DNA of 64,000 bases from a virus. Shown piece after piece: positions 6,494 to 22,272 of this stretch. Position numbers and translations under genes: made by a program. Positions within the stretch are counted from its first letter, which is position 1; the number at the start of each line of letters is the position of its first letter. The stretch lies in IMG/VR virus record IMGVR_UViG_3300046318_000188, positions 32,001 to 96,000 of that record. One strand, given 5' to 3'. The notes beneath the pieces were generated by a model. The model saw nothing but the letters and a program-made list of their open reading frames with translations, had not been told where the DNA came from and made no database searches.

Positions 6494-7059
6494 GTGAATT
6501 TATTACAATCAATACCACAGAAGCGGTAAAAGAAACTCCCAAGATTAGGCAAGAAACAATATTGCCTTTGGTACCAGAAAATCATACATTACTATCACAG
6601 GTAATGCCTCAATGGGACTTTAAAAATCCTCCGATGAATCCAATAGAACTGGCATCAAACCTTGTTGATACTTGCCGTAAAAACCACGGTTATGGATTAT
6701 CTGCCAATCAATGTGGATTACCATATCGTGTATTCGTAATGGGATATGACCAAGAGTTTGTGGCATTTTTTAATCCAAAGATTATTTCCACGGAAGGTGA
6801 ATGTCACATGATAGAAGGATGTTTATCTTTTCCATTTTTGGCATTAAGGATTACCAGACCAGAAATCATTAATGTGGAATACCAAGATTATGAAGGTAAT
6901 ACCAAAACATCTAAGTTTGCCGGTATTTCCGCAAGATGTTTTCAACATGAGCTTGACCATATGAATGGTATCGTGTATACTAGTAAAGTTAAACCTATGG
7001 CTATGCAAATGGGTATGCAGAAACGAAATAAAATTTTAAAGAAATTGAAACTTAAATAA
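6490..7059 (+). CDS. def: Peptide deformylase
   Basis: GYGLSANQ, EGCLS, QHELDHMNG motifs. Confidence 0.92.
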   Translation: MSEFITINTTEAVKETPKIRQETILPLVPENHTLLSQVMPQWDFKNPPMNPIELASNLVDTCRKNHGYGLSANQCGLPYRVFVMGYDQEFVAFFNPKIISTEGECHMIEGCLSFPFLALRITRPEIINVEYQDYEGNTKTSKFAGISARCFQHELDHMNGIVYTSKVKPMAMQMGMQKRNKILKKLKLK

Positions 7060-8324
7060 TGGCAACTCCAATTGAATTTGTAGAAGAACAATGGGAAAAA
7101 TGGTCAGAATCCAACCCTCCTTCTAAATTTGAACATATCGATGAAGGTCATATGAAAGAAGTCCTTATCAAGGATTTAACATATGCTTCACAAATGGATG
7201 TTCGTGAATATACTCTATACCAAAAATGGTGTGAAGTGAAAGAGAGATATCCTGTACATGAAGTTTCTACACTATTCGGACAAGATGTTCAGATGGTGGA
7301 TCCCGAACAAAGAAAATTGGTTGACAAGGTTAAGAAAAACTTTTGGATGCCAGAAAGTCCAGATGATTATGAGAAATTGAAACCTGTTATGGTTCTTTCA
7401 AATGGTACTGGTGCTGAAACTTGGAATGCCGTTCGTACCTTTTCTTCCACTATGAAGAACAATAGTAACATTGGCCGTAATCTGTTTTACATTCTTACCG
7501 ATGAAGTAACTGGCAAATATCTTGGAGTTATTTGTATCTCCTCAGACTTCCTGGACTTGACTCCAAGAGATAATGCAATAGGATGGTCGAGAGATATTAA
7601 AACACAGCAGCACATGATTAATCATACTGCAATTGGATCCACAATCGTTCCTCTACAACCACTCGGTTTTAATTACATGGGTGGTAAGTTATTGGCATTA
7701 ATGTGTTTATCTGATACAGTTCAGAAAGATTGGAAGCGACAATATGGTGATACATTGGTTGGAGTTACTACTACTTCTCTTTATGGCAATACTAAGTCTG
7801 GCGGTCTATCTCAATATGATGGACTAGAACATTGGAATAAAATGGGATTCTCCTCAGGTTCTGTGGCATTTGAACCGAGTAGAGCAACCAAAAAATTAGT
7901 ATTTGATTGGATTAAAGAGAATCACACTCGCAAATATTTTGAATGGTGGGAAGCAAAGAATCAACAAGGCCTTCCACTTAAGCGTGACCATAAAAATCGT
8001 TCTTTGAATTTTGCTTATTCTAAACTTGGTATTCCAAAAGAATTAATTCGTACAGAACATCAGCGTGGTATCTATTTTAGTCCGTTATACAATAACACTA
8101 ATGAATTTCTCCGTAAAGAAATTACAGATGAGCAGTTGGTAAAATCATTTGATACCAGCGAAGAAGCTTTATCTACTATTTGGAAAACAAAATATGCCAA
8201 AGGTAGAATCCGTCAATTACAGAAAAAGAATAATGTTTCATATGAAACTCTTTTCTATGACGATTTAATTGAATTATCTTGGGAAGAAACCAAGGCAAAG
8301 TATTTGCCACAAGTTGGCAGATAA
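7059..8324 (+). CDS. DUF4338 / Druantia DruA-like protein
   Basis: 'IVPLQPLGFNYMGGKLLA', 'TTTSLYG...SQYDG'; paralog at 32454. Confidence 0.6.
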   Translation: MATPIEFVEEQWEKWSESNPPSKFEHIDEGHMKEVLIKDLTYASQMDVREYTLYQKWCEVKERYPVHEVSTLFGQDVQMVDPEQRKLVDKVKKNFWMPESPDDYEKLKPVMVLSNGTGAETWNAVRTFSSTMKNNSNIGRNLFYILTDEVTGKYLGVICISSDFLDLTPRDNAIGWSRDIKTQQHMINHTAIGSTIVPLQPLGFNYMGGKLLALMCLSDTVQKDWKRQYGDTLVGVTTTSLYGNTKSGGLSQYDGLEHWNKMGFSSGSVAFEPSRATKKLVFDWIKENHTRKYFEWWEAKNQQGLPLKRDHKNRSLNFAYSKLGIPKELIRTEHQRGIYFSPLYNNTNEFLRKEITDEQLVKSFDTSEEALSTIWKTKYAKGRIRQLQKKNNVSYETLFYDDLIELSWEETKAKYLPQVGR

Positions 8325-15922: not shown

Positions 15923-16420
15923 ATGCAGTTAAGTATAGTCGGTTGTCCCGATAAAAAACATTTCCGCCCGTTTGTAAAAAGGGCTGCCTTATTTTACGCT
16001 TCCGAATTGATTAAACCTAAGATGTTAGAAAACATCTTTTTGAGAATTAAATTTAGTTCTAAGATTGAAGCTCATGGATATGCCTCTGTGATAGAGTTCA
16101 GTAGAAGTAATAAACCAAGACAGTTTGAAATTGAATTACATCCTGGTATCGGCGCAGCAGAAATATTAAAAACACTCAGTCATGAAATGGTGCATATTAA
16201 GCAATACATTTATGGTGATGTTAATTTAAATCTGACCAGATGGAAAGGCAGTAAAGTTTTAGAACCTGATTATTGGGTTCAACCATGGGAAATAGAAGCC
16301 TATGGTATGCAAGCAGGACTATTTACAAAGTTTGCAGTAAAAGAAAAATTATGGAATATATTTGATGATATGTGTGATCCTGATAGTCCGATAGAAATGA
16401 AACCATTAGGTTGGAAATAA
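15923..16420 (+). CDS. Zinc metallopeptidase-like protein
   Basis: HEMVH motif and 'PWEIEAY'; late-promoter-like GATAAATA upstream. Confidence 0.7.
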   Translation: MQLSIVGCPDKKHFRPFVKRAALFYASELIKPKMLENIFLRIKFSSKIEAHGYASVIEFSRSNKPRQFEIELHPGIGAAEILKTLSHEMVHIKQYIYGDVNLNLTRWKGSKVLEPDYWVQPWEIEAYGMQAGLFTKFAVKEKLWNIFDDMCDPDSPIEMKPLGWK

Positions 16421-16421
16421 A

Positions 16422-16494
16422 TGTTGCTAAAAAGCAACAGTATTTGGTAAATAATTACAAAGTTGTTGACAATTGAGCATATATACTATATCAT
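16422..16494 (+). promoter_or_regulatory. Promoter of tRNA-array leader with upstream TGTTG-N8-CAACA palindrome
   Basis: Palindrome 16422-16439; TTGACA(16466)-N17-TATCAT(16489). Confidence 0.7.
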
Positions 16495-16531
16495 ACACAG
16501 TATTGAATAAATTAATTAAGAAAGAAATAAA

Positions 16532-16633
16532 ATGTTGTTTGTAACGAAACCTTTATCCATGCAGTCAGAGTATCGCACACCGAGCAATTGGCCAGCGATT
16601 GGCTTTGACCATGCCTCAGGGGTTCGTGTATAG
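16532..16633 (+). CDS. Putative attenuator leader peptide (33 aa: MLFVTKPLSMQSEYRTPSNWPAIGFDHASGVRV)
   Basis: Read manually; final codons form the 5' arm of an antiterminator; 19 amino acids, 29 distinct codons. Confidence 0.65.
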   Translation: MLFVTKPLSMQSEYRTPSNWPAIGFDHASGVRV

Positions 16634-16694
16634 AACAAAAGTAATTTCCTTTCACACACGAACCCTAGTCTAAACAACTAGGGTTTTTTGTTTT
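16620..16694 (+). terminator. Attenuator: antiterminator 16620-16629/16656-16665 competing with terminator 16661-16669/16677-16685 + U tract
   Basis: GGGTTCGTGT/ACACGAACCC perfect 10 bp; AACCCTAGT/ACTAGGGTT 9 bp then TTTTGTTTT; the two share AACCC. Confidence 0.8.
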
Positions 16695-16705
16695 CCAGTT
16701 TCAAA

Positions 16706-16751
16706 TTACTAGACACTAAAATTTCAGTCTAGTAACGCTCTCTAAAAATTT
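16706..16751 (+). promoter_or_regulatory. boxB-like hairpin plus boxA-like antitermination element
   Basis: TTACTAGAC/GTCTAGTAA hairpin then CGCTCTCTAAAAATT (cf. rrn boxA TGCTCTTTAACA). Confidence 0.55.
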
Positions 16752-16764
16752 AAGTAGTAACTAT

Positions 16765-16838
16765 TGAGATATAGTGTAACGGTAGCACCACGCACTTTGA
16801 CTGCGTTAGCATAGGTTCAAATCCTATTATCTCTACCA
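16765..16838 (+). tRNA. tRNA-Gln(TTG)
   Basis: Cloverleaf, ACGCA-CTTTGAC-TGCGT, encoded CCA. Confidence 0.9.
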
Positions 16839-16840
16839 AT

Positions 16841-16934
16841 GGAAGGTAATGCAGCGGGGATGGTCCTGCGACTGGCCTTGAAAACCAGGTTCTGCCTAAA
16901 AGCGGATGGGGTTCGACTCCTCTGCCTTCCGCCA
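16841..16934 (+). tRNA. tRNA-Ser(TGA)
   Basis: Loop CTTGAAA, long variable arm, GCCA end. Confidence 0.9.
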
Positions 16935-17057
16935 TATTGAAGCATACTGCGGTGGTGTTACATATTATATCTAGTCAATATAATATGCCTATGCTAAGAG
17001 TATGATTAAATGTTCCGACAGCCTTAGACTAAGGTTCATTAGTGTGCTTCAATATGG
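16932..17057 (+). ncRNA. Stem-bounded RNA element 1 (RNase III-like stem)
   Basis: CCATATTGAAGCATACT ... AGTGTGCTTCAATATGG 17-bp stem. Confidence 0.6.
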
Positions 17058-17063
17058 TTTATT

Positions 17064-17150
17064 GGAAGATGTGTTGCAAGGTGCGACCGAAGTTTGCTAA
17101 ACTTCCGTTCAGAAATGGGCTGATAGGTTCGATTCCTATATCTTCCGCCA
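17064..17150 (+). tRNA. tRNA-Ser(GCT)
   Basis: GAAGT-TTGCTAA-ACTTC, long variable arm. Confidence 0.88.
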
Positions 17151-17152
17151 AT

Positions 17153-17227
17153 GGTGGTGTGACCGAATGGTGAGGTGACAGTCTGCAAAACTGGTCCAAG
17201 TAGGTTCGATTCCTATCACCACCTCCA
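17153..17227 (+). tRNA. tRNA-Cys(GCA)
   Basis: Loop CTGCAAA, U73, CCA. Confidence 0.9.
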
Positions 17228-17232
17228 GTATG

Positions 17233-17325
17233 TGTTGTACCAAAACAACAGTATCAAAAATAGTTCTTGTGGTATTTTTTGGTTCGTGTATAATAGTTGT
17301 TCTGTTGTAAAGTTCTTTAAAAATT
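17233..17325 (+). promoter_or_regulatory. Internal promoter with TGTTG-N8-CAACA box and boxA-like element
   Basis: Palindrome 17233-17250; TATAAT 17289-17294; GTTCTTTAAAAATT 17312-17325. Confidence 0.65.
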
Positions 17326-17338
17326 AAGTAGTAACAAT

Positions 17339-17413
17339 ACACCGTTCGTCTATCGGTTAGGACCCAAGGTTTTCAACCTTGTAAGAGGAGTTCAACTCTC
17401 CTACGGTGTACCA
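17339..17413 (+). tRNA. tRNA-Glu(TTC)
   Basis: CAAGG-TTTTCAA-CCTTG. Confidence 0.9.
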
Positions 17414-17527
17414 TATTGAAGCACATTTAAACCTTAACAGGTCGGTATTGGTAAGCCAAAACCTCTATTAGTAAGTTCGAGAATTTATTAGTAAGTTTAT
17501 TTCACCTTAATGTGTTTCAATATGGTA
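17409..17527 (+). ncRNA. Stem-bounded RNA element 2
   Basis: TACCATATTGAAGCACATT ... AATGTGTTTCAATATGGTA 19-bp stem. Confidence 0.6.
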
Positions 17528-17674
17528 AGTAATGGCAAAAAATATAATATTGTTCTTTTTAATCTTGCTAATATCGCGGTTAGTGGGTGACATAAGAAAA
17601 ATGTTAAACAAGTATGCGACCTAGAAGCGGGTGGACAAACGTGACTGTGGGCCACCAAGGTAGTCAACATTACA

Positions 17675-17753
17675 TACTATATTGAAACATATTAGATCAG
17701 TGACCGTTCCGACAGGTGCGGCGACATTAAAGTGAGTGTGTTTCAATATGGTA
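17675..17753 (+). ncRNA. Stem-bounded RNA element 3
   Basis: TACTATATTGAAACATATT ... AGTGTGTTTCAATATGGTA, three G-U pairs. Confidence 0.6.
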
Positions 17754-17754
17754 A

Positions 17755-17878
17755 TATCTGAAGCATAGCAAGTGATGCTAGAGGTAGGGGTAAGCATTGA
17801 ACTCGAGATAGGTGCTTATGAGTAACTCGACCGGTCTCACCCGGTGAAGCGTATTGCAACCATACGCCAGATACACCA
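17755..17878 (+). ncRNA. Multi-hairpin RNA ending in ACCA
   Basis: TATCTG/CAGATA closing stem with four internal hairpins, 3' CACCA. Confidence 0.5.
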
Positions 17879-17949
17879 TATTAAAACACACTTCAGGCGG
17901 GGAGGCTCCGCTCCAAATATCAAAGTGAGGTAGTGTGTTTCAATATGGT
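17875..17949 (+). ncRNA. Stem-bounded RNA element 4
   Basis: ACCATATTAAAACACACT ... AGTGTGTTTCAATATGGT. Confidence 0.6.
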
Positions 17950-18009
17950 ATGACTCTGCTGGGTATGAATCAGATTCTCCGGCGGGTAAGTTACTACCAT
18001 ATCAAATTT

Positions 18010-18084
18010 GGTTCGTTCATATAACGGTAATTATGCTGGACTGTCTATCCGGATACAGGAGTTCGATTCTCCTACGAACCGCCA
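18010..18084 (+). tRNA. tRNA-Asp(GTC)
   Basis: CTGGA-CTGTCTA-TCCGG, GCCA. Confidence 0.9.
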
Positions 18085-18092
18085 AGTTTTAT

Positions 18093-18170
18093 TGTCCGAG
18101 AGCAAGCAAGGTGTAGGCGCCTGACTGTTAATCAGGAATGAGTGAGGTTCGATTCCTCATCGGACAGCCA
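18093..18170 (+). tRNA. tRNA-Asn(GTT)
   Basis: CCTGA-CTGTTAA-TCAGG. Confidence 0.9.
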
Positions 18171-18179
18171 AGTTTCAAT

Positions 18180-18261
18180 GGTGTGGATGCTCTAATGGTA
18201 GGGCAGCGGGCTGTAAACCCGTGGCTTCGGCAAGTAGGTTCGATCCCTACCCACATCACCA
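18180..18261 (+). tRNA. tRNA-Tyr(GTA)
   Basis: GCGGG-CTGTAAA-CCCGT, variable arm. Confidence 0.9.
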
Positions 18262-18269
18262 AGTTTTAT

Positions 18270-18347
18270 CTCAGTATAGGCTAGCCTGGTCAAGTCACTC
18301 CGTTTGGGGCGGAGAGTGCGTAAGTTCGAATCTTACTACTGAGACCA
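18270..18347 (+). tRNA. tRNA-Pro(TGG)
   Basis: CTCCG-TTTGGGG-CGGAG. Confidence 0.9.
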
Positions 18348-18488
18348 TATTGTAGTTGTAACGATATTACTACGTTGCTAGAAGCGTAGTCTGACGGCTG
18401 GTTAAGGATACACGGTGTCCACGGAATAAGGGAACCAGAATTTCGAGTGCTGACAGGTAAGCTGTCATCTTTTTAAAGGAGAAGTAAA

Positions 18489-18671
18489 ATGAAACCAAGA
18501 AATATATTTGCCGTGTTGGCAAGTAAACGGAAGGCGGGCCCGCACCGCAAAAGCAATAAAGCTTTACGCAAGAAAGAAAAACAATCGGGGTATAATTCAA
18601 CGGCTAGAATATCCGGCTTTTACCCGGACTATCAGAGTTCGAATCTCTGTGCCTCGACCAGTTTATCTTAA
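18489..18671 (+). CDS. Small basic protein whose ORF runs into tRNA-Lys
   Basis: Strong AAAGGAG RBS; MKPRNIFAVLASKRKAGPHRKSNKALRKKEKQ, no stop before the tRNA. Confidence 0.6.
   Translation: MKPRNIFAVLASKRKAGPHRKSNKALRKKEKQSGYNSTARISGFYPDYQSSNLCASTSLS
18586..18660 (+). tRNA. tRNA-Lys(TTT)
   Basis: TCCGG-CTTTTAC-CCGGA. Confidence 0.9.
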
Positions 18672-18760
18672 AACATACTAACGCCAAAAACTGGCGGTCT
18701 AGCGTCAACTAGGCGAAACTGTATTTGACGATGCAGAGGATTAGTATGTTTCAAAATAAA
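18662..18760 (+). ncRNA. Stem-bounded RNA element 5 (possible pseudoknot)
   Basis: TTTATCTTAAAACATACTAA ... TTAGTATGTTTCAAAATAAA; loop CGTCAA complementary to downstream TTGACG. Confidence 0.55.
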
Positions 18761-18766
18761 TTGTAA

Positions 18767-18841
18767 GCTCTCAAAACATAAATGGTGATGTGCTGGTTTT
18801 GTAATCCAGATAACTTGGTTCGATTCCGAGTGAGAGCACCA
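18767..18841 (+). tRNA. tRNA-Thr(TGT)
   Basis: Loop TTTGTAA, GCTCTCA/TGAGAGC acceptor. Confidence 0.88.
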
Positions 18842-18846
18842 AATTT

Positions 18847-18918
18847 GGGCTGTGTGCAGGGGCACAAGGATGCTTTGCAAGCAACCTCTGGTCGGTTCGA
18901 TACCGACACGGTCCACCA
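18847..18918 (+). tRNA. tRNA-Ala(TGC), atypical short D arm
   Basis: Loop TTTGCAA; G3-U70 Ala identity pair. Confidence 0.75.
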
Positions 18919-18923
18919 AACAT

Positions 18924-18998
18924 GGTAGTGTAGCATAATGGTCGTGCGCCTCCTTCATACGGAGAAAAGTATAAGTTCGAATCTTATCACTACCACCA
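18924..18998 (+). tRNA. tRNA with CAT anticodon (probably elongator Met)
   Basis: CTCC-TTCATAC-GGAG. Confidence 0.82.
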
Positions 18999-19095
18999 GT
19001 TTGTTAAGTTAAGTGCAGTAACATGGGTTGAGTGATCCTCTCAGCCGATTAACAACGGAGTTGGCCGTACCGTCTGCATACGAGCCCCAAATTAT

Positions 19096-19172
19096 GGGTC
19101 ATTAACATCAAATGGAAGATGCCTGTCTTACGAAGTCAGAAGTTGGGAGTTCGAATCTCTCATGACCCTCCA
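19096..19172 (+). tRNA. tRNA-Arg(ACG)
   Basis: Loop TTACGAA. Confidence 0.85.
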
Positions 19173-19179
19173 GTTTTAC

Positions 19180-19253
19180 ACCTAGGTAGCTCAATGGTAG
19201 AGCAATCGGCTGATAACCGATAGACAGAAGTTCAATTCTTCTTCTAGGTACCA
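19180..19253 (+). tRNA. tRNA-Ile(GAT)
   Basis: ATCGG-CTGATAA-CCGAT. Confidence 0.92.
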
Positions 19254-19371
19254 GAGCAGACCCACAGGATCCGCAAGGCTGTCAAACTCTTAACCTGTTA
19301 AAATAAACAAGAGTGAGTTCCGCCAGTAACTTTCACAAGGAGATGAGTTGAATAAACTCACTGGCAACTAT

Positions 19372-19446
19372 TTCTCGGTGGTGTTAACGGTAGCACACTG
19401 GTCTCCAAAACCATAAGTTGCGGTTCGAATCCGTACCGGGAAGCCA
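19372..19446 (+). tRNA. tRNA-Trp(CCA)
   Basis: Loop CTCCAAA. Confidence 0.9.
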
Positions 19447-19466
19447 TAATAATAAAAGGAGTTAGC

Positions 19467-19943
19467 ATGAAAAAGTTAGATATAGTAGAAGTCAAAAGAT
19501 TCATTGAAGCACAATCTGAAGATACTAAAATCTATCTTGGTGCTGACTCTGAAAGATTTGAAATCAAAGGTGAATGGTATGCTGACTACACATTAGCAGT
19601 AGTTGTTCATATTGATGGATGTCATGGTTGTAAAATCTTTGGTGAAGTTATTCGTGAAAGAGATTATGACCAAAAGAAAAATAAACCTGCTTTAAGATTG
19701 ATGAATGAAGTTTACAAAGTTTCAGATTTATTTCAATCTCTTGCGGATGTATTAGAAGATAGGTACGTTGAGGTACATTTAGATATTAACCCAAATGAAT
19801 TATATGGTTCATCTTGTGTAGTTCAACAAGCGATTGGTTATATCAAAGGTACTTGTAATGTTATACCTATGGTTAAACCAAAAGCTTTTGCTGCTTCATA
19901 TGCGGCAGATAGATTAAAGTTTGTTTTAGCTGAAGCAGCTTAA
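19467..19943 (+). CDS. RNase H-like protein, YkuK/DUF458 family
   Basis: 'IYLGADS', 'RLMNEV', 'EVHLDIN', 'KPKAFAASYAAD'. Confidence 0.75.
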   Translation: MKKLDIVEVKRFIEAQSEDTKIYLGADSERFEIKGEWYADYTLAVVVHIDGCHGCKIFGEVIRERDYDQKKNKPALRLMNEVYKVSDLFQSLADVLEDRYVEVHLDINPNELYGSSCVVQQAIGYIKGTCNVIPMVKPKAFAASYAADRLKFVLAEAA

Positions 19944-19947
19944 CTAT

Positions 19948-20021
19948 GTGGCTCCTAGTGTAATGGTTGCACACTTGTCTGTGAAACAAGTAGAGAGGGT
20001 TCGATTCCCCGGTTCCACCCA
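19948..20021 (+). tRNA. tRNA-His(GTG)
   Basis: CTTGT-CTGTGAA-ACAAG; G-1:C73. Confidence 0.85.
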
Positions 20022-20030
20022 AAGGATATT

Positions 20031-20249
20031 ATGTATAGAGTAAAATGGATTAAAGATGTTTATGATAATGATGTAAAAGAATTTCATACTTTAGATGAAG
20101 CAATGAATTATGCAAAACAATTAGATATAACTGTTGAGATTAAAACTCCAGATTATACTGTTGTTGGTAAATTTGGAGTTGATTCAGTAGAAAATCTAAT
20201 TCTGCCGAATGGTGCAGAGTATGGATATGTAAAACGTAGATACAAGTAA
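20031..20249 (+). CDS. Hypothetical protein
   Basis: AAGGA RBS, 72 aa between tRNAs. Confidence 0.65.
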   Translation: MYRVKWIKDVYDNDVKEFHTLDEAMNYAKQLDITVEIKTPDYTVVGKFGVDSVENLILPNGAEYGYVKRRYK

Positions 20250-20252
20250 TAT

Positions 20253-20326
20253 GCCTCGGTAGTTTAATAGTAGAACACCGCTCTTACAAAGCGAAGACGG
20301 CGGAGCGTTACCGCAACGAGGTACCA
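20253..20326 (+). tRNA. tRNA-Val(TAC), non-canonical T loop
   Basis: Loop CTTACAA; T loop AGCGTTA. Confidence 0.78.
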
Positions 20327-20328
20327 AT

Positions 20329-20404
20329 GCAACTTTAGCTGATGTGGTCATAGCGGTGGTCTGAAGAGCCATTGAACCAAGTTCGATCCTTGGAGGTTGC
20401 ACCA
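20329..20404 (+). tRNA. tRNA-Phe(GAA)
   Basis: GTGGT-CTGAAGA-GCCAT. Confidence 0.88.
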
Positions 20405-20409
20405 GTTTT

Positions 20410-20483
20410 GCTCTTATAGTATAATGGCATTACACATCCTTGGTAAGGATGAAACACAAGTTCAATTCTTGTTAAGAGCACCA
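20410..20483 (+). tRNA. tRNA-Thr(GGT)
   Basis: CATCC-TTGGTAA-GGATG. Confidence 0.9.
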
Positions 20484-20485
20484 AT

Positions 20486-20562
20486 GCCCTTGTAGCGCAA
20501 TTGGTAGAGGCAATGGTCTTAGAAGCCATCAAGTGTCAGTTCGAATCTGACCAAGGGTACCA
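20486..20562 (+). tRNA. tRNA-Leu(TAG), short variable arm
   Basis: ATGGT-CTTAGAA-GCCAT. Confidence 0.88.
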
Positions 20563-20563
20563 A

Positions 20564-20640
20564 GCGGTTGTGATGGAAATGGTATACGTACCGGACTTAA
20601 AATTCGGGTTTTGTGGGTTCAAGTCCCACCTTCCGCACCA
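20564..20640 (+). tRNA. tRNA-Leu(TAA), short variable arm
   Basis: CCGGA-CTTAAAA-TTCGG. Confidence 0.85.
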
Positions 20641-20642
20641 AA

Positions 20643-20698
20643 TAACTTTACAATGATGTTGCTTTAACTTTACAATAGTGTTATAATAACTTTACAAT
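20643..20698 (+). repeat. Three 12-bp direct repeats at 22-bp period overlapping a promoter
   Basis: TAACTTTACAAT at 20643, 20665, 20687; TTGCTT(20659)-N17-TATAAT(20682) with extended -10 TG. Confidence 0.75.
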
Positions 20699-20701
20699 AA
20701 A

Positions 20702-20776
20702 CTGGCTATAGTATAATGGAGAATACAGAAGGCTTCTACCCTTTTAATGTGGGTTCGATTCCTGCTAGCCAGACCA
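20702..20776 (+). tRNA. tRNA-Arg(TCT)
   Basis: GAAGG-CTTCTAC-CCTTT. Confidence 0.9.
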
Positions 20777-20781
20777 AATTT

Positions 20782-20856
20782 GGGCCGTTAGCATATCGGT
20801 AGATGCCGGCGACTCATAATCGTCAGAAGAAAGTTCGACTCTTTCACGGCCCACCA
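20782..20856 (+). tRNA. tRNA-Ile2(CAT, lysidine type) probable
   Basis: GGCGA-CTCATAA-TCGTC anticodon arm like E. coli ileX. Confidence 0.75.
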
Positions 20857-20873
20857 AGTTTACCATAATGTTG

Positions 20874-20902
20874 TTGACAAAGTTGTATAAGTATAGTATA
20901 GT
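20874..20902 (+). promoter_or_regulatory. sigma70-type promoter inside tRNA array
   Basis: TTGACA-N17-TATAGT. Confidence 0.65.
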
Positions 20903-20921
20903 TACTACTTGAACGAAATAT

Positions 20922-20988
20922 GCGGTGTGTGATAGCACGATTCGAGATACCCTCTTGAATTATCTGAGCAAAGCAGACCACCGCTCCA
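20922..20988 (+). ncRNA. Degenerate tRNA-Gly-like RNA (ACC in loop)
   Basis: GCGGTG/CACCGC-TCCA acceptor with Gly identity; tiny D arm; T loop AGCAAAG. Confidence 0.55.
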
Positions 20989-20995
20989 AATTTAT

Positions 20996-21069
20996 GCGGG
21001 TATGATGTAAAGGTAACCTGAGTCCTTGCCAAGGACTATTTGAGAGTTCGATTCTCTCTGCCCGCTCCA
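20996..21069 (+). tRNA. tRNA-Gly(GCC)
   Basis: AGTCC-TTGCCAA-GGACT. Confidence 0.9.
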
Positions 21070-21084
21070 CTAAAAGGAATTGTT

Positions 21085-21288
21085 ATGGCTGCTGTAAAAT
21101 CTAAAAAGAAGAATCCAATGTTAACCAAGAATGGTAAACAGCGATTAGGTCCTTTGAACATTGAACAATTGTCTAAAATGTTAGATGGTGCTCGCAAGAA
21201 ACATATTCCTAAAATCAAGAAAGCCATTGCAAAGCGATTACAAACGCAACAGTTTGGCAAAGATGCAGAGCCAGTAGTTTCAGAATAA
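21085..21288 (+). CDS. Small basic hypothetical protein
   Basis: AAGGA RBS; MAAVKSKKKNPMLTKNGKQRLGPLN... Confidence 0.65.
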   Translation: MAAVKSKKKNPMLTKNGKQRLGPLNIEQLSKMLDGARKKHIPKIKKAIAKRLQTQQFGKDAEPVVSE

Positions 21289-21294
21289 AAATTT

Positions 21295-21368
21295 GCGGGA
21301 TTAGTTTAATGGTAAAACTAGAGGTTTCCAACCTTTCGTTGTCAGTTCGATTCTGTCATCCCGCTCCA
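21295..21368 (+). tRNA. tRNA-Gly(TCC)
   Basis: AGAGG-TTTCCAA-CCTTT. Confidence 0.9.
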
Positions 21369-21374
21369 GTTTGT

Positions 21375-21450
21375 TGGCATATAGCTCAGTTGGTAGAGCA
21401 CCGGACTGTTAATCCGTAGGTCCTTGGTTCGAGCCCAAGTTTGCCAGCCA
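21375..21450 (+). tRNA. tRNA-Asn(GTT), second copy
   Basis: Canonical D and T arms, loop CTGTTAA. Confidence 0.92.
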
Positions 21451-21495
21451 TATATAAGTGTTGTAATATGTTTATTTTATTAAGAAGGAATTGAA

Positions 21496-22272
21496 ATGAA
21501 AAAATCACTATTAGCAGTAATGTTGGTTGCATCAGGTGTAGTGTCAGCTGCAGAAGTATTTGATGGTAATCTTACAGGCAATATGACTTTAGCAAGTAAC
21601 TACGAATTTCGTGGTATTAGTTTAAGTCAAAATGGTCCTGCAATTCAAGGTGGTATCGACTACGCACATAGTTCAGGTATTTACATCGGTAACTGGAATT
21701 CCAGTATGCGTGGTGTTCCAAACATGAACAATGATGACATCGATAGTAATAGTGGTACACAATCAAATCTATATGCTGGTTGGCGTAAAGATGTTTACAA
21801 AGGCATTATTGTTGACTTAGGTACTATTAGTTACCTTTATCCTACCGCAACAGCCGGTGGTTCAAAAACAAATTACAGCACAAACGAAGTATATGCCGGT
21901 TTAGGTTATGGTCCTGTTTCTGTCAAGTTCAGCCAAACAACCTCAAATTACTTTGGTGTTAACAACAGTTCTGGCACACAATACTACCAAGCTGACATCA
22001 AACAAAGTTTAGGTGCTCTTGCATCACAACTCAAACCATTAAGTGTTGTTGCACATTATGGTCATACATCAATGGCTGGTAACGGCAACAGTAATTTGAA
22101 TTACAATGACATGAACATTGGTTTAGTATATTCATTCCCAGAGCAATGGGACTTAGGTGTTCGTTACTACACCAATTCATCTATGACAAGCACATTCCAA
22201 CAATATAATAGTTGGAATGGTACCAAGTTTTATGGTGATTCTGTTGTAGCAACATTGACAAAAACGTTTTAA
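21496..22272 (+). CDS. TorF-like (TIGR02001/Gcw_chp) outer-membrane beta-barrel
   Basis: Signal peptide; 'LASNYEFRGISLSQNGPAIQGGIDY.HSSG.Y.G.W.S'; terminal Phe. Confidence 0.8.
   Translation: MKKSLLAVMLVASGVVSAAEVFDGNLTGNMTLASNYEFRGISLSQNGPAIQGGIDYAHSSGIYIGNWNSSMRGVPNMNNDDIDSNSGTQSNLYAGWRKDVYKGIIVDLGTISYLYPTATAGGSKTNYSTNEVYAGLGYGPVSVKFSQTTSNYFGVNNSSGTQYYQADIKQSLGALASQLKPLSVVAHYGHTSMAGNGNSNLNYNDMNIGLVYSFPEQWDLGVRYYTNSSMTSTFQQYNSWNGTKFYGDSVVATLTKTF

Follow-up and report, generated by a model that had tools for sequence, protein, structure and literature searches.

The tRNA (transfer RNA) clusters of phages can hold RNAs that are not tRNAs, and their role has been a question since the discovery of the species 1 and species 2 RNAs of phage T4. 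These two small RNAs, encoded by rnaC and rnaD, are derived from a common precursor by the tRNA-processing enzymes, and species 1 RNA is cut by RNase III in vitro. In Y RNA and YrlA, a long stem formed by the 5′ and 3′ ends is combined with a tRNA-like module and serves as a protein-binding handle. In this study, we analyzed a window of 64,000 nucleotides (nt), i.e. bases 32001–96000 of the 121,872-base IMG/VR virus record IMGVR_UViG_3300046318_000188 (estimated completeness 73%), whose tRNA array contains five hairpin elements with a common stem and different interiors, here called cargoes. Also relevant for comparison are theta (minimal hepatitis delta virus-like) ribozymes adjoining tRNA genes in uncultured phages (bioRxiv 10.1101/2023.06.13.544163), PeSLs as short conserved repeats through which T4-like genomes exchange unrelated modules by homologous recombination (PMC4122927), and ROOL and GOLLD, non-coding RNAs of phages and prophages with unknown function that are often found near tRNA islands (PMC12286853).

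The initial annotation of the window had described the elements as RNase III-like stems around unrelated small RNAs. Direct reading and a repeat search showed that the five hairpins are real, four being canonical and one divergent, and that they lie in the tRNA array only. When IMG/VR was scanned for exact matches of a 15-nt arm, at least 119 uncultured viral contigs with this arm were obtained. A tolerant search of the listed contigs and the window (up to 3 substitutions per arm, arms 20–250 nt apart) then yielded at least 189 non-nested elements with the stem consensus CCAUAUUGAARCACAYU / ARUGUGYUUCAAUAUGG. For 181 of them, tRNA genes are found at a distance of up to 1.5 kb, in every locus on one strand only. 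At least 74 of the 189 start exactly at C74 of a tRNA-encoded CCA, and 22 elements end within the first two bases of the next tRNA. Additional loci were taken from the best 80 of 302 that encode a relative of a DUF458 protein of the window array; 36 of these 80 hold 59 further elements. Merging both sets gave at least 241 oriented elements in 120 sources. The 204 unique sequences among them fall into 153 unrelated cargo clusters. Element lengths range from 57 to 157 nt.

The carriers of the hairpins are a clade of uncultured freshwater T4-like phages. The window encodes T4-type replication proteins (UvsW-like helicase, SMC/gp46-like ATPase, family B polymerase, DnaB-like helicase, and ribonucleotide reductase), and a T4-type Gp23 capsid gene is present in four of five other large hairpin-bearing records. 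Array sequence was found in 24 public sequencing runs, all of them freshwater or aquatic metagenomes except one unlabelled run. On one related contig, a permuted transfer-messenger RNA (tmRNA) of betaproteobacterial type (L019:13913–14302; L-numbers designate fetched loci of relatives) hints at the host group.

Outside this clade, no counterpart was found in the databases covered. Among deposited phages, blastn with element 4 in distant mode (E up to 10; 50,697 records) returned nine records, all with E = 9 and none with both arms, and megablast of the array matched tRNA genes only. The two-arm pattern gave no match in 185,579 cellular species genomes at a gap of 40–70, i.e. for elements of approximately 70–100 nt only. 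The proposed check against Rfam returned no family over the hairpins: Rfam 15 at the gathering threshold gave 26 matches in the window, all of them tRNA; with E up to 5, the hairpins in 16400–21600 drew only chance-level mir-653 matches (E 0.18 and 1.7); and among the best 150 of 187 matches in 12 other hairpin loci at the gathering threshold, only tRNA, tmRNA, and group I introns occurred. The latter lie inside tRNA arrays of relatives (L109:4552–4748, L109:5921–6130, and L052:13185–13378). No description of such elements was found in the literature searched, most subscription journals being outside its coverage.

Selection acts on the stem at the RNA level, and on the tRNA strand. When 167 unique elements are oriented along the tRNA strand, their 17 stem positions comprise 2520 Watson-Crick, 250 G-U, and 38 A-C pairs and 31 other combinations. 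Position 16 is U-G in 135 of the 167 elements and position 11 is G-U in 49, while 27 of the 38 A-C pairs represent one variant at position 8. The duplex is uninterrupted for 16–21 base pairs (bp) in 111 of 167 elements, and the position 8 A-C variant interrupts it in 30. For the arm alignment, one representative per cargo cluster was used (140 rows, arms ungapped; one row, L129:3829, is mis-registered since an inner pseudo-arm was picked). Standard pairs make up 97.4% of its cells, in comparison to 28–55% in slid controls. Double changes occur at 14 of the 17 stem pairs (103 cells), and none of 500 shuffles reached any of five measures. Selection at the RNA level is concluded from the G-U excess over A-C, the U-G pair at position 16, and the compensatory double changes; thereby, the RNA-level structure proposed in the initial annotation and the arm covariation expected from it were both recovered across the family. 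Also, the discriminator base of the upstream tRNA and the base following the 3′ arm form A-U in 45 of 68 cases and G-U in 7, and therefore the A-CCA of the tRNA is the foot of the helix.

In the window, ARAGORN detected 27 tRNA genes. Each of them is on the + strand, and 25 fall within 16765–21450. The elements and the features next to them are the following:

16841–16934, + strand: tRNA-like RNA with a long variable arm, from its sequence a probable tRNA-Ser, with a UGA anticodon by reading
16932–17057, + strand: element 1, canonical 17-bp stem, 92-nt cargo; minimum free energy (MFE) −42.9 kcal/mol, z −4.8
17339–17413, + strand: tRNA-Glu(UUC), called by ARAGORN; its CCA begins element 2
17409–17527 (core 17411–17525), + strand: element 2, 19-bp stem including the discriminator A-U, arms 95%, 81-nt cargo
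17528–17674, + strand: 147-nt segment between elements 2 and 3, no assignment
17675–17753 (core 17677–17751), + strand: element 3, three G-U pairs in the stem, 41-nt cargo
17754–17875, + strand: structured 122-nt segment with a 6-bp closing stem and an ACACCA end leading into element 4
17875–17949 (core 17876–17948), + strand: element 4, A-C mismatch at position 8, 39-nt cargo; MFE −28.6 kcal/mol, z −4.0
18586–18660, + strand: tRNA-Lys(UUU), called by ARAGORN, preceding element 5
18659–18763, + strand: element 5, divergent, arms 18659–18681 and 18741–18763 (23 nt, 87% complementary), 59-nt cargo
19467–19943, + strand: DUF458/YkuK RNase H-like gene (PF04308, phrog_11311) inside the array, an association only

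The interior lengths of approximately 92, 81, 41, 39, and 59 nt agree with the initial annotation, and so does its statement that arm substitutions mostly give G-U pairs on the + strand (one each in elements 1 and 2, three in element 3, and one A-C in element 4). The sequence GTTCCGACAG is indeed common to elements 1 and 3, at 17012 and 17706. A start of three elements at the CCA of a preceding tRNA or tRNA-like RNA had also been described. This applies to element 2, which starts at C74 of tRNA-Glu, and to element 1, whose first three bases are the terminal CCA of the tRNA-like RNA 16841–16934; element 4 follows the ACACCA of the structured segment 17754–17875, which neither ARAGORN nor Rfam recognizes as a tRNA. 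The tRNA-like RNA itself reached 38 bits with the tRNA-Sec model of Rfam, under the gathering score of 47, and was not called by ARAGORN. Element 5 starts inside the CCA of tRNA-Lys with an offset of 4 nt; the outer part of its arms is site-specific (GUUUAUCUU.. / ..AAAAUAAAUUG) and the inner part is family-like. For the 147-nt segment 17528–17674, no homologue was found among the fetched loci of relatives.

The + strand fold is the more stable one in four of the five window elements, with z values from −4.0 to −6.4. For element 3, the MFE is −31.8 kcal/mol on the + strand vs −18.7 kcal/mol on the − strand; element 2 (MFE −40.7 kcal/mol, z −6.1) and element 5 (MFE −35.9 kcal/mol, z −6.4) also fold stably. 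Element 4 is more stable on the − strand because of the A-C mismatch at position 8. A 14-nt arm motif with up to 3 mismatches had 19 matches vs 11.5 expected (standard deviation 3.0), a number reached by none of 100 shuffles. All eight matches with up to 2 mismatches in 16932–17948 alternate in the order −/+, and in the whole record eight of nine matches with up to 1 mismatch fall inside the tRNA array. The right arm of element 2 (17508–17534) can pair with the left arm of element 3 (17668–17694) over 27 nt at 89%, which is longer than either local stem, as the flanks of the 147-nt segment in between add to the complementarity. Alternative or intermolecular pairing between arms of different elements is possible. 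None of the five window hairpins was called terminator-like, and no T-run terminator is present. Promoter-like sites amount to 20 weak matches, a number not above that in shuffles (mean 16.5). Three sites with 11 of 12 matching positions are outside the elements, and two weaker ones are inside, at 16957–16984 on the + strand (element 1, 10 of 12) and 17943–17916 on the − strand (element 4, 9 of 12).

Stem and cargo evolve as separable modules, subject to exchange, loss, and relocation to other tRNA sites. Behind the tRNA-Ser-like gene, the window shares its arms with L129, L132, and L134; these arms enclose the 92-nt cargo of element 1 in the window and an unrelated cargo of approximately 45 nt in the three relatives. 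Behind tRNA-Glu, the window has a block of 596 nt with elements 2–4; L129 carries one hairpin there, with another cargo and with variant arms that are compensated; in L134, tRNA-Asp follows one base after tRNA-Glu with no hairpin between them. In L132, tRNA-Lys is followed by a homologue of the element 2 cargo. The cargo of element 5 is found behind tRNA-Gly(UCC) in L134 within a shorter variant stem, and the outer arms of element 5 recur in L129 and L132 around other cargoes. At the clustering threshold used, none of the four canonical window elements shares its interior cluster with another element; by eye, the cargo of element 3 resembles a 70-nt cargo family (L019:1393 and others). For nine cargo clusters, the upstream tRNA is of at least two kinds, and tRNA-Glu(UUC) and tRNA-Lys(UUU) each precede 21 different clusters. 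The cassette idea of the initial annotation, with a constant stem, unrelated exchangeable interiors, and physical coupling to tRNA 3′ ends, is thereby supported.

An abutting hairpin is found behind a minority of tRNAs, with 92 unique hairpins vs 1503 tRNA genes in the same sources. Most frequent among the 92 are tRNA-Glu(UUC) with 23, tRNA-Lys(UUU) with 22, tRNA-Leu(UAG) with 11, and tRNA-Gln(UUG) with 6. No hairpin follows any tRNA-Met (138 genes) nor the Asp, Asn, Cys, Trp, or His tRNAs across the loci. As the phages are related, the accumulation at Glu and Lys tRNAs reflects hot spots and not independent events, and common ancestry may explain part of it. Anticodon nucleases classically target U34-containing tRNAs for Lys, Glu, and Gln.

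The cargoes are conserved structured modules. In three cargo families of 3–4 sequences each, 4, 3, and 6 compensatory pairs were found, and the 29-nt cargo of cluster 1 shows one substitution among five loci with differing arms and upstream tRNAs. A T-loop motif is present on the tRNA strand in 20 of 167 cargoes and on the other strand in none (shuffle mean 1.5); in the merged set, 22 of the 204 unique elements have it, and these belong to 17 of the 153 clusters. In six elements from four clusters it lies exactly 4 nt before the 3′ arm, as in the register of a tRNA (shuffle mean 0.04, maximum 2), and in these six elements 3–5 of the 5 T-stem pairs form. Comparison of the cargoes with the phage's own 121,872 bases gave just 10–16-nt matches (best E 0.05) and no meaningful complementarity, so the antisense function considered initially did not hold up against this genome.

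On balance, we lean towards the view that the elements are RNA-level cassettes within the tRNA precursor transcript that are released as stem-capped small RNAs. Each occupies the slot of a tRNA gene; the A-CCA of the upstream tRNA begins its 5′ strand, and its 3′ strand stops either a few bases short of the next tRNA or within the initial GG of that tRNA. The conserved duplex of 17–18 bp would clamp a small, independently folded RNA, which can be any of over 150 unrelated kinds. If the whole array is transcribed as one precursor, the RNase P cut at the next tRNA would fix where the element ends on its 3′ side. The upstream CCA would be freed when the duplex is cut internally or at its base, for which host RNase III is the most probable enzyme, with subsequent 3′ trimming, and the cargo would be left as a stem-capped, exonuclease-resistant small RNA. 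The conserved stem sequence could serve as recognition surface for the nuclease or for a binding protein. As a by-product, the constancy of the stem would provide homology for recombination of cargoes between sites and phages. Our guess is that the cargoes act as tRNA-related mimics or decoys. Enrichment of U-G wobbles in the distal box of RNase III sites is reported in PMC11780869. Genes for RNase III (PF14622), TROVE (PF05731), and RtcB were not found in the 73%-complete record. Regarding transcription, two metatranscriptome runs and one doubtful run contain 5–9% of the array words, and an RNA-library contig of one relative leads from the tRNA-Ser-like gene to a variant arm (loose end 16937), from which no conclusion was drawn as DNA carry-over is possible.

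Several observations weigh against release by RNase III or, more generally, against the strength of this view. The stem of 17–18 bp is at the short end for RNase III and would be borderline unless stacked on the acceptor or T helix of a tRNA. According to PMC8708148, RNase III sites have no strong shared consensus. A need of RNase III for such a high degree of sequence identity is not known; since such sites share little sequence, the near-fixed stem makes a specific binder more likely. The hairpin-free junction in L134 means that the stem is dispensable for tRNA maturation. In the global MFE fold of the block 17675–17949, the arms of elements 3 and 4 pair crosswise. The RNA-library contigs over 16400–21600 are those of relatives, mostly cover tRNAs, and do not extend over 17444–17965. 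Furthermore, selection by arm similarity (up to 3 mismatches per arm) inflates the 97.4% of paired cells, leaving double changes and strand bias unaffected, and the carrier phages are related, so that element counts are not independent events. The initial annotation had also matched the right arm of element 1 to a proposed E. coli RNase III consensus, WNAGWGNNCWUNN. No confirmation of this consensus was found, the string 'WNAG' having no occurrence in the main text of PMC6212723 (Altuvia et al. 2018).

A bolder extension, which we put forward as doubtful, regards the constant duplex, or an acceptor-like top part of it with a conserved wobble of the U6-G67 type, as the universal handle of a natural RNA display system. 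Here, a single phage or host factor might process, stabilize, or load a library of rapidly exchangeable small RNA effectors, a step that we consider equally tentative. Such effectors might include mimics of tRNA arms as well as decoys that counter defences directed at tRNAs; the hot spots at Lys(UUU) and Glu(UUC) could agree with this, which is again conjectural. It is likewise conceivable, with no greater confidence, that phages trade effectors by recombination through the handle, as an RNA counterpart of integron cassettes or anti-defence islands.

The main rival explanation, which we judge unlikely, places a tRNA mimic inside the hairpin. The top 7 bp (R-C-A-C-A-Y-U / A-R-U-G-U-G-Y) would be a constant acceptor-like helix, and the lower 10 bp would arise from pairing of leader and trailer. 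Several features fit this geometry: position 11 is a purine in 203 of 204 elements; 7 nt separate it from the upstream CCA, similar to the spacers between tRNAs in these arrays, which are usually 4–8 nt long with a mode of 6; and the 3′ strand continues with U-UCA in 143 of 204 elements. Maturation by RNase P 5′ of position 11, an RNase Z-type cut or trimming after the base following the helix, and possibly addition of CCA would then be conceivable, at the same low probability, though leader-trailer pairing normally hinders RNase P. The products, on a similarly improbable footing, would have a common acceptor end and variable bodies, read by a synthetase-like or transferase enzyme, a Ro/Y-RNA-like binder, or a decoyed tRNA-targeting nuclease. 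The T-loop motif in 22 of 204 elements, six of them in exact tRNA register, and the T arm of species 1 RNA (rnaC) in the T4 tRNA cluster agree with such a mimic, but approximately 90% of the elements are without a recognizable T arm, and the acceptor-like sequence occurs in none of 2443 tRNA genes of the loci. In addition, neither TROVE/Ro60 nor RtcB was found in the 73%-complete record, and the Rfam YrlA model had no match on the elements.

Two other explanations would do without a function of the cargo RNA. The hairpin could be a spacer or insulator that protects the upstream CCA end or times its release, the interior being filler; we regard this as improbable. It would account for the exact CCA start of 74 of 189 elements, for the pairing of the discriminator (45 of 68 A-U plus 7 G-U), and for the fast turnover of interiors between close relatives. 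However, 107 of the 189 elements have tRNAs nearby yet abut no detected tRNA, the tRNAs with a hairpin are a minority, and cargo families are conserved with compensatory changes across phages with differing arms and flanks. This conservation, together with the L134 junction, which functions in the absence of any hairpin, makes a pure spacer role unlikely. Still less probable in our view is a DNA-level element without RNA function, such as termini of miniature mobile elements, PeSL-like recombination anchors, or attC-like single-stranded DNA hairpins. Cargoes are exchanged and relocated with the arms as borders, attC sites have lengths similar to the range of 57–157 bp, and G-T pairs could stabilize a single-stranded DNA hairpin, too. 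Moreover, shuffling of modules via short conserved repeats, the PeSLs, is described for T4-type phages in PMC4122927 and PMC2839356. Against this stand the strand-specific wobbles (250 G-U vs 38 A-C and the U-G at position 16 in 135 of 167 elements, which become mismatches on the opposite strand), the location of elements on the tRNA strand within tRNA arrays, and flanks whose bases pair with each other (A/T in 45 of 68 elements that abut a tRNA and in 62 of the 99 others, in some cases followed by several further pairs) instead of being direct repeats. A DNA-only element is unlikely because of these wobbles, the single orientation, the lack of target-site duplications, and the lack of the two-arm pattern in the cellular genomes searched at the gap of 40–70. 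Recombination through the arms, as assumed in the cassette view, probably moves cargoes as a by-product.

Two specific DNA elements were also considered. A miniature inverted-repeat transposable element (MITE) or other DNA transposon remnant, named initially as a possible refutation, would have inverted repeats as found here, but target-site duplication, mixed orientations, and varied contexts are lacking; the elements are un-MITE-like in having one orientation, in occurring in tRNA arrays only, and in giving no match in the cellular genomes searched. Integron attC sites have the cores RYYYAAC / GTTRRRY, and the arm consensus is without such R''/R' core sites; a search for an integrase was not made.

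As a possible partner of the hairpins, the DUF458 gene of the array was considered. According to PMC3985635, the DUF458 family is placed in the RNase H1 clade, and its product is, judged by sequence, a candidate tRNA-array nuclease. The gene is present in 28 of 119 hairpin loci; across hairpin phages, the proteins are 60–94% identical and the stem sequence is nearly fixed. No relative of the protein was found by sequence in the PDB. DUF458 as a specific partner of the hairpins was rejected, as Stenotrophomonas phage DLP_6 has the gene in its tRNA array and no long-stem hairpins were found there. Homologues occur in 76 deposited phage records. Their recognized carriers, e.g. KVP40, are large tRNA-rich phages. 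Elsewhere, the gene lies beside a peptidyl-tRNA hydrolase gene in Ruegeria phage RpAliso and beside a tail-fibre gene in KVP40; loci L128, L210, and L211 also belong to this observation.

Further features of the array were recorded. A promoter close to the consensus (TTGACA, 17 nt, TATCAT) is located at 16466–16494 on the + strand. Approximately 170 nt further, directly before the first tRNA, a strong terminator-like hairpin with a T run follows (16660–16686); a separate small RNA within 16466–16696 is possible. An A/T-rich leader (…AAAWTTAAGTAGTAAC…) is repeated before tRNA-Gln and tRNA-Glu (16745–16783 and 17319–17357), and 20643–20708 consists of three tandem 22-nt repeats (TAACTTTACAAT…), two of which score promoter-like (TTTACA, 18 nt, TACAAT). 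Both kinds of repeats are possible phage promoters or processing signals inside the array. Rfam detected an additional tRNA at 20253–20323 on the + strand (37.2 bits) that was missed by ARAGORN. After tRNA-Pro, the segment 18345–18488 on the + strand has an arm-like start (CCATATTG…), then diverges into other small hairpins, and may be a decayed element. It is followed by an open reading frame (ORF; 18489–18671, + strand) for a very basic peptide, with an AAGGAG ribosome-binding site 8 nt upstream. Its frame enters tRNA-Lys (18586–18660) before any stop, and an RNase P cut at tRNA-Lys would turn the message into a stop-less mRNA. Relatives of the peptide were found by tblastn in 6 of 119 hairpin loci; an ArfA-like nature was rejected, there being no Pfam match at E up to 10. 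The ORF closing the array (21496–22272, + strand) has a match to Gcw_chp (PF09694, E 2.5e-41), a family that Pfam lists only as bacterial and without known function. Distant from the array, the ORF 7059–8324 (+ strand) of the window has a match to the Druantia defence family DruA (PF14236, E 3e-21).

Phage tRNA arrays are usually read as lists of tRNAs, and in the array described here genes of another kind take up a sizeable part. They encode a modular RNA that combines a single fixed stem with more than 150 alternative bodies; it is common in freshwater T4-like phages and absent from the databases and papers searched. If the cargoes are released as small RNAs, they would form a large and so far unexplored set of phage RNA effectors, each with its own tag for processing and stabilization, which, if true, could be used as a design for the expression of small RNAs from tRNA-type transcripts. 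Since the constant stem marks hundreds of candidates, the role of non-tRNA RNAs in phage tRNA clusters becomes approachable by comparison.

Compared with the known systems, the elements are closest in setting to the T4 species 1 and 2 RNAs. Both are non-tRNA RNA genes (predicted ones in the case of the elements) that are located directly behind tRNA genes in the tRNA cluster of a T4-type phage, and the T arm of rnaC has its like in some cargoes. The architecture is not shared: rnaC and rnaD fold without a long terminal stem and are two fixed genes, in contrast to the exchangeable cargo family found here. The YrlA model (RF02553) had no match over the elements and a sole weak one at 19112–19244 (E 0.74) over tRNA genes. 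The stem here is perfect, without the bulged helix typical of Ro-binding stems, and the cargoes are mostly not tRNA-like. Theta ribozymes have one catalytic core, whereas the elements have a plain conserved duplex, interiors without a common core, and no match to an Rfam ribozyme. PeSLs are composite terminator and promoter motifs flanking protein genes in hyperplastic regions; the elements, in contrast, have no T-run terminator, are found in tRNA arrays, enclose RNA cargoes, and show strand-specific wobbles. ROOL and GOLLD are large, each class having its own conserved sequence and structure, whereas the elements are hairpins with a variable interior. RNase III hairpins such as T7 R1.1 are duplexes of about two turns in polycistronic phage transcripts; according to PMC8708148, such sites share little sequence, whereas the stem here is nearly fixed. 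The elements belong to none of T4 species 1 and 2 RNAs, YrlA, theta ribozymes, ROOL and GOLLD, or PeSLs. By kind, they are non-tRNA RNAs embedded in phage tRNA clusters, and what is new about them is the sequence-constant clamp that starts from the CCA of a tRNA and the large set of exchangeable cargoes that it encloses.

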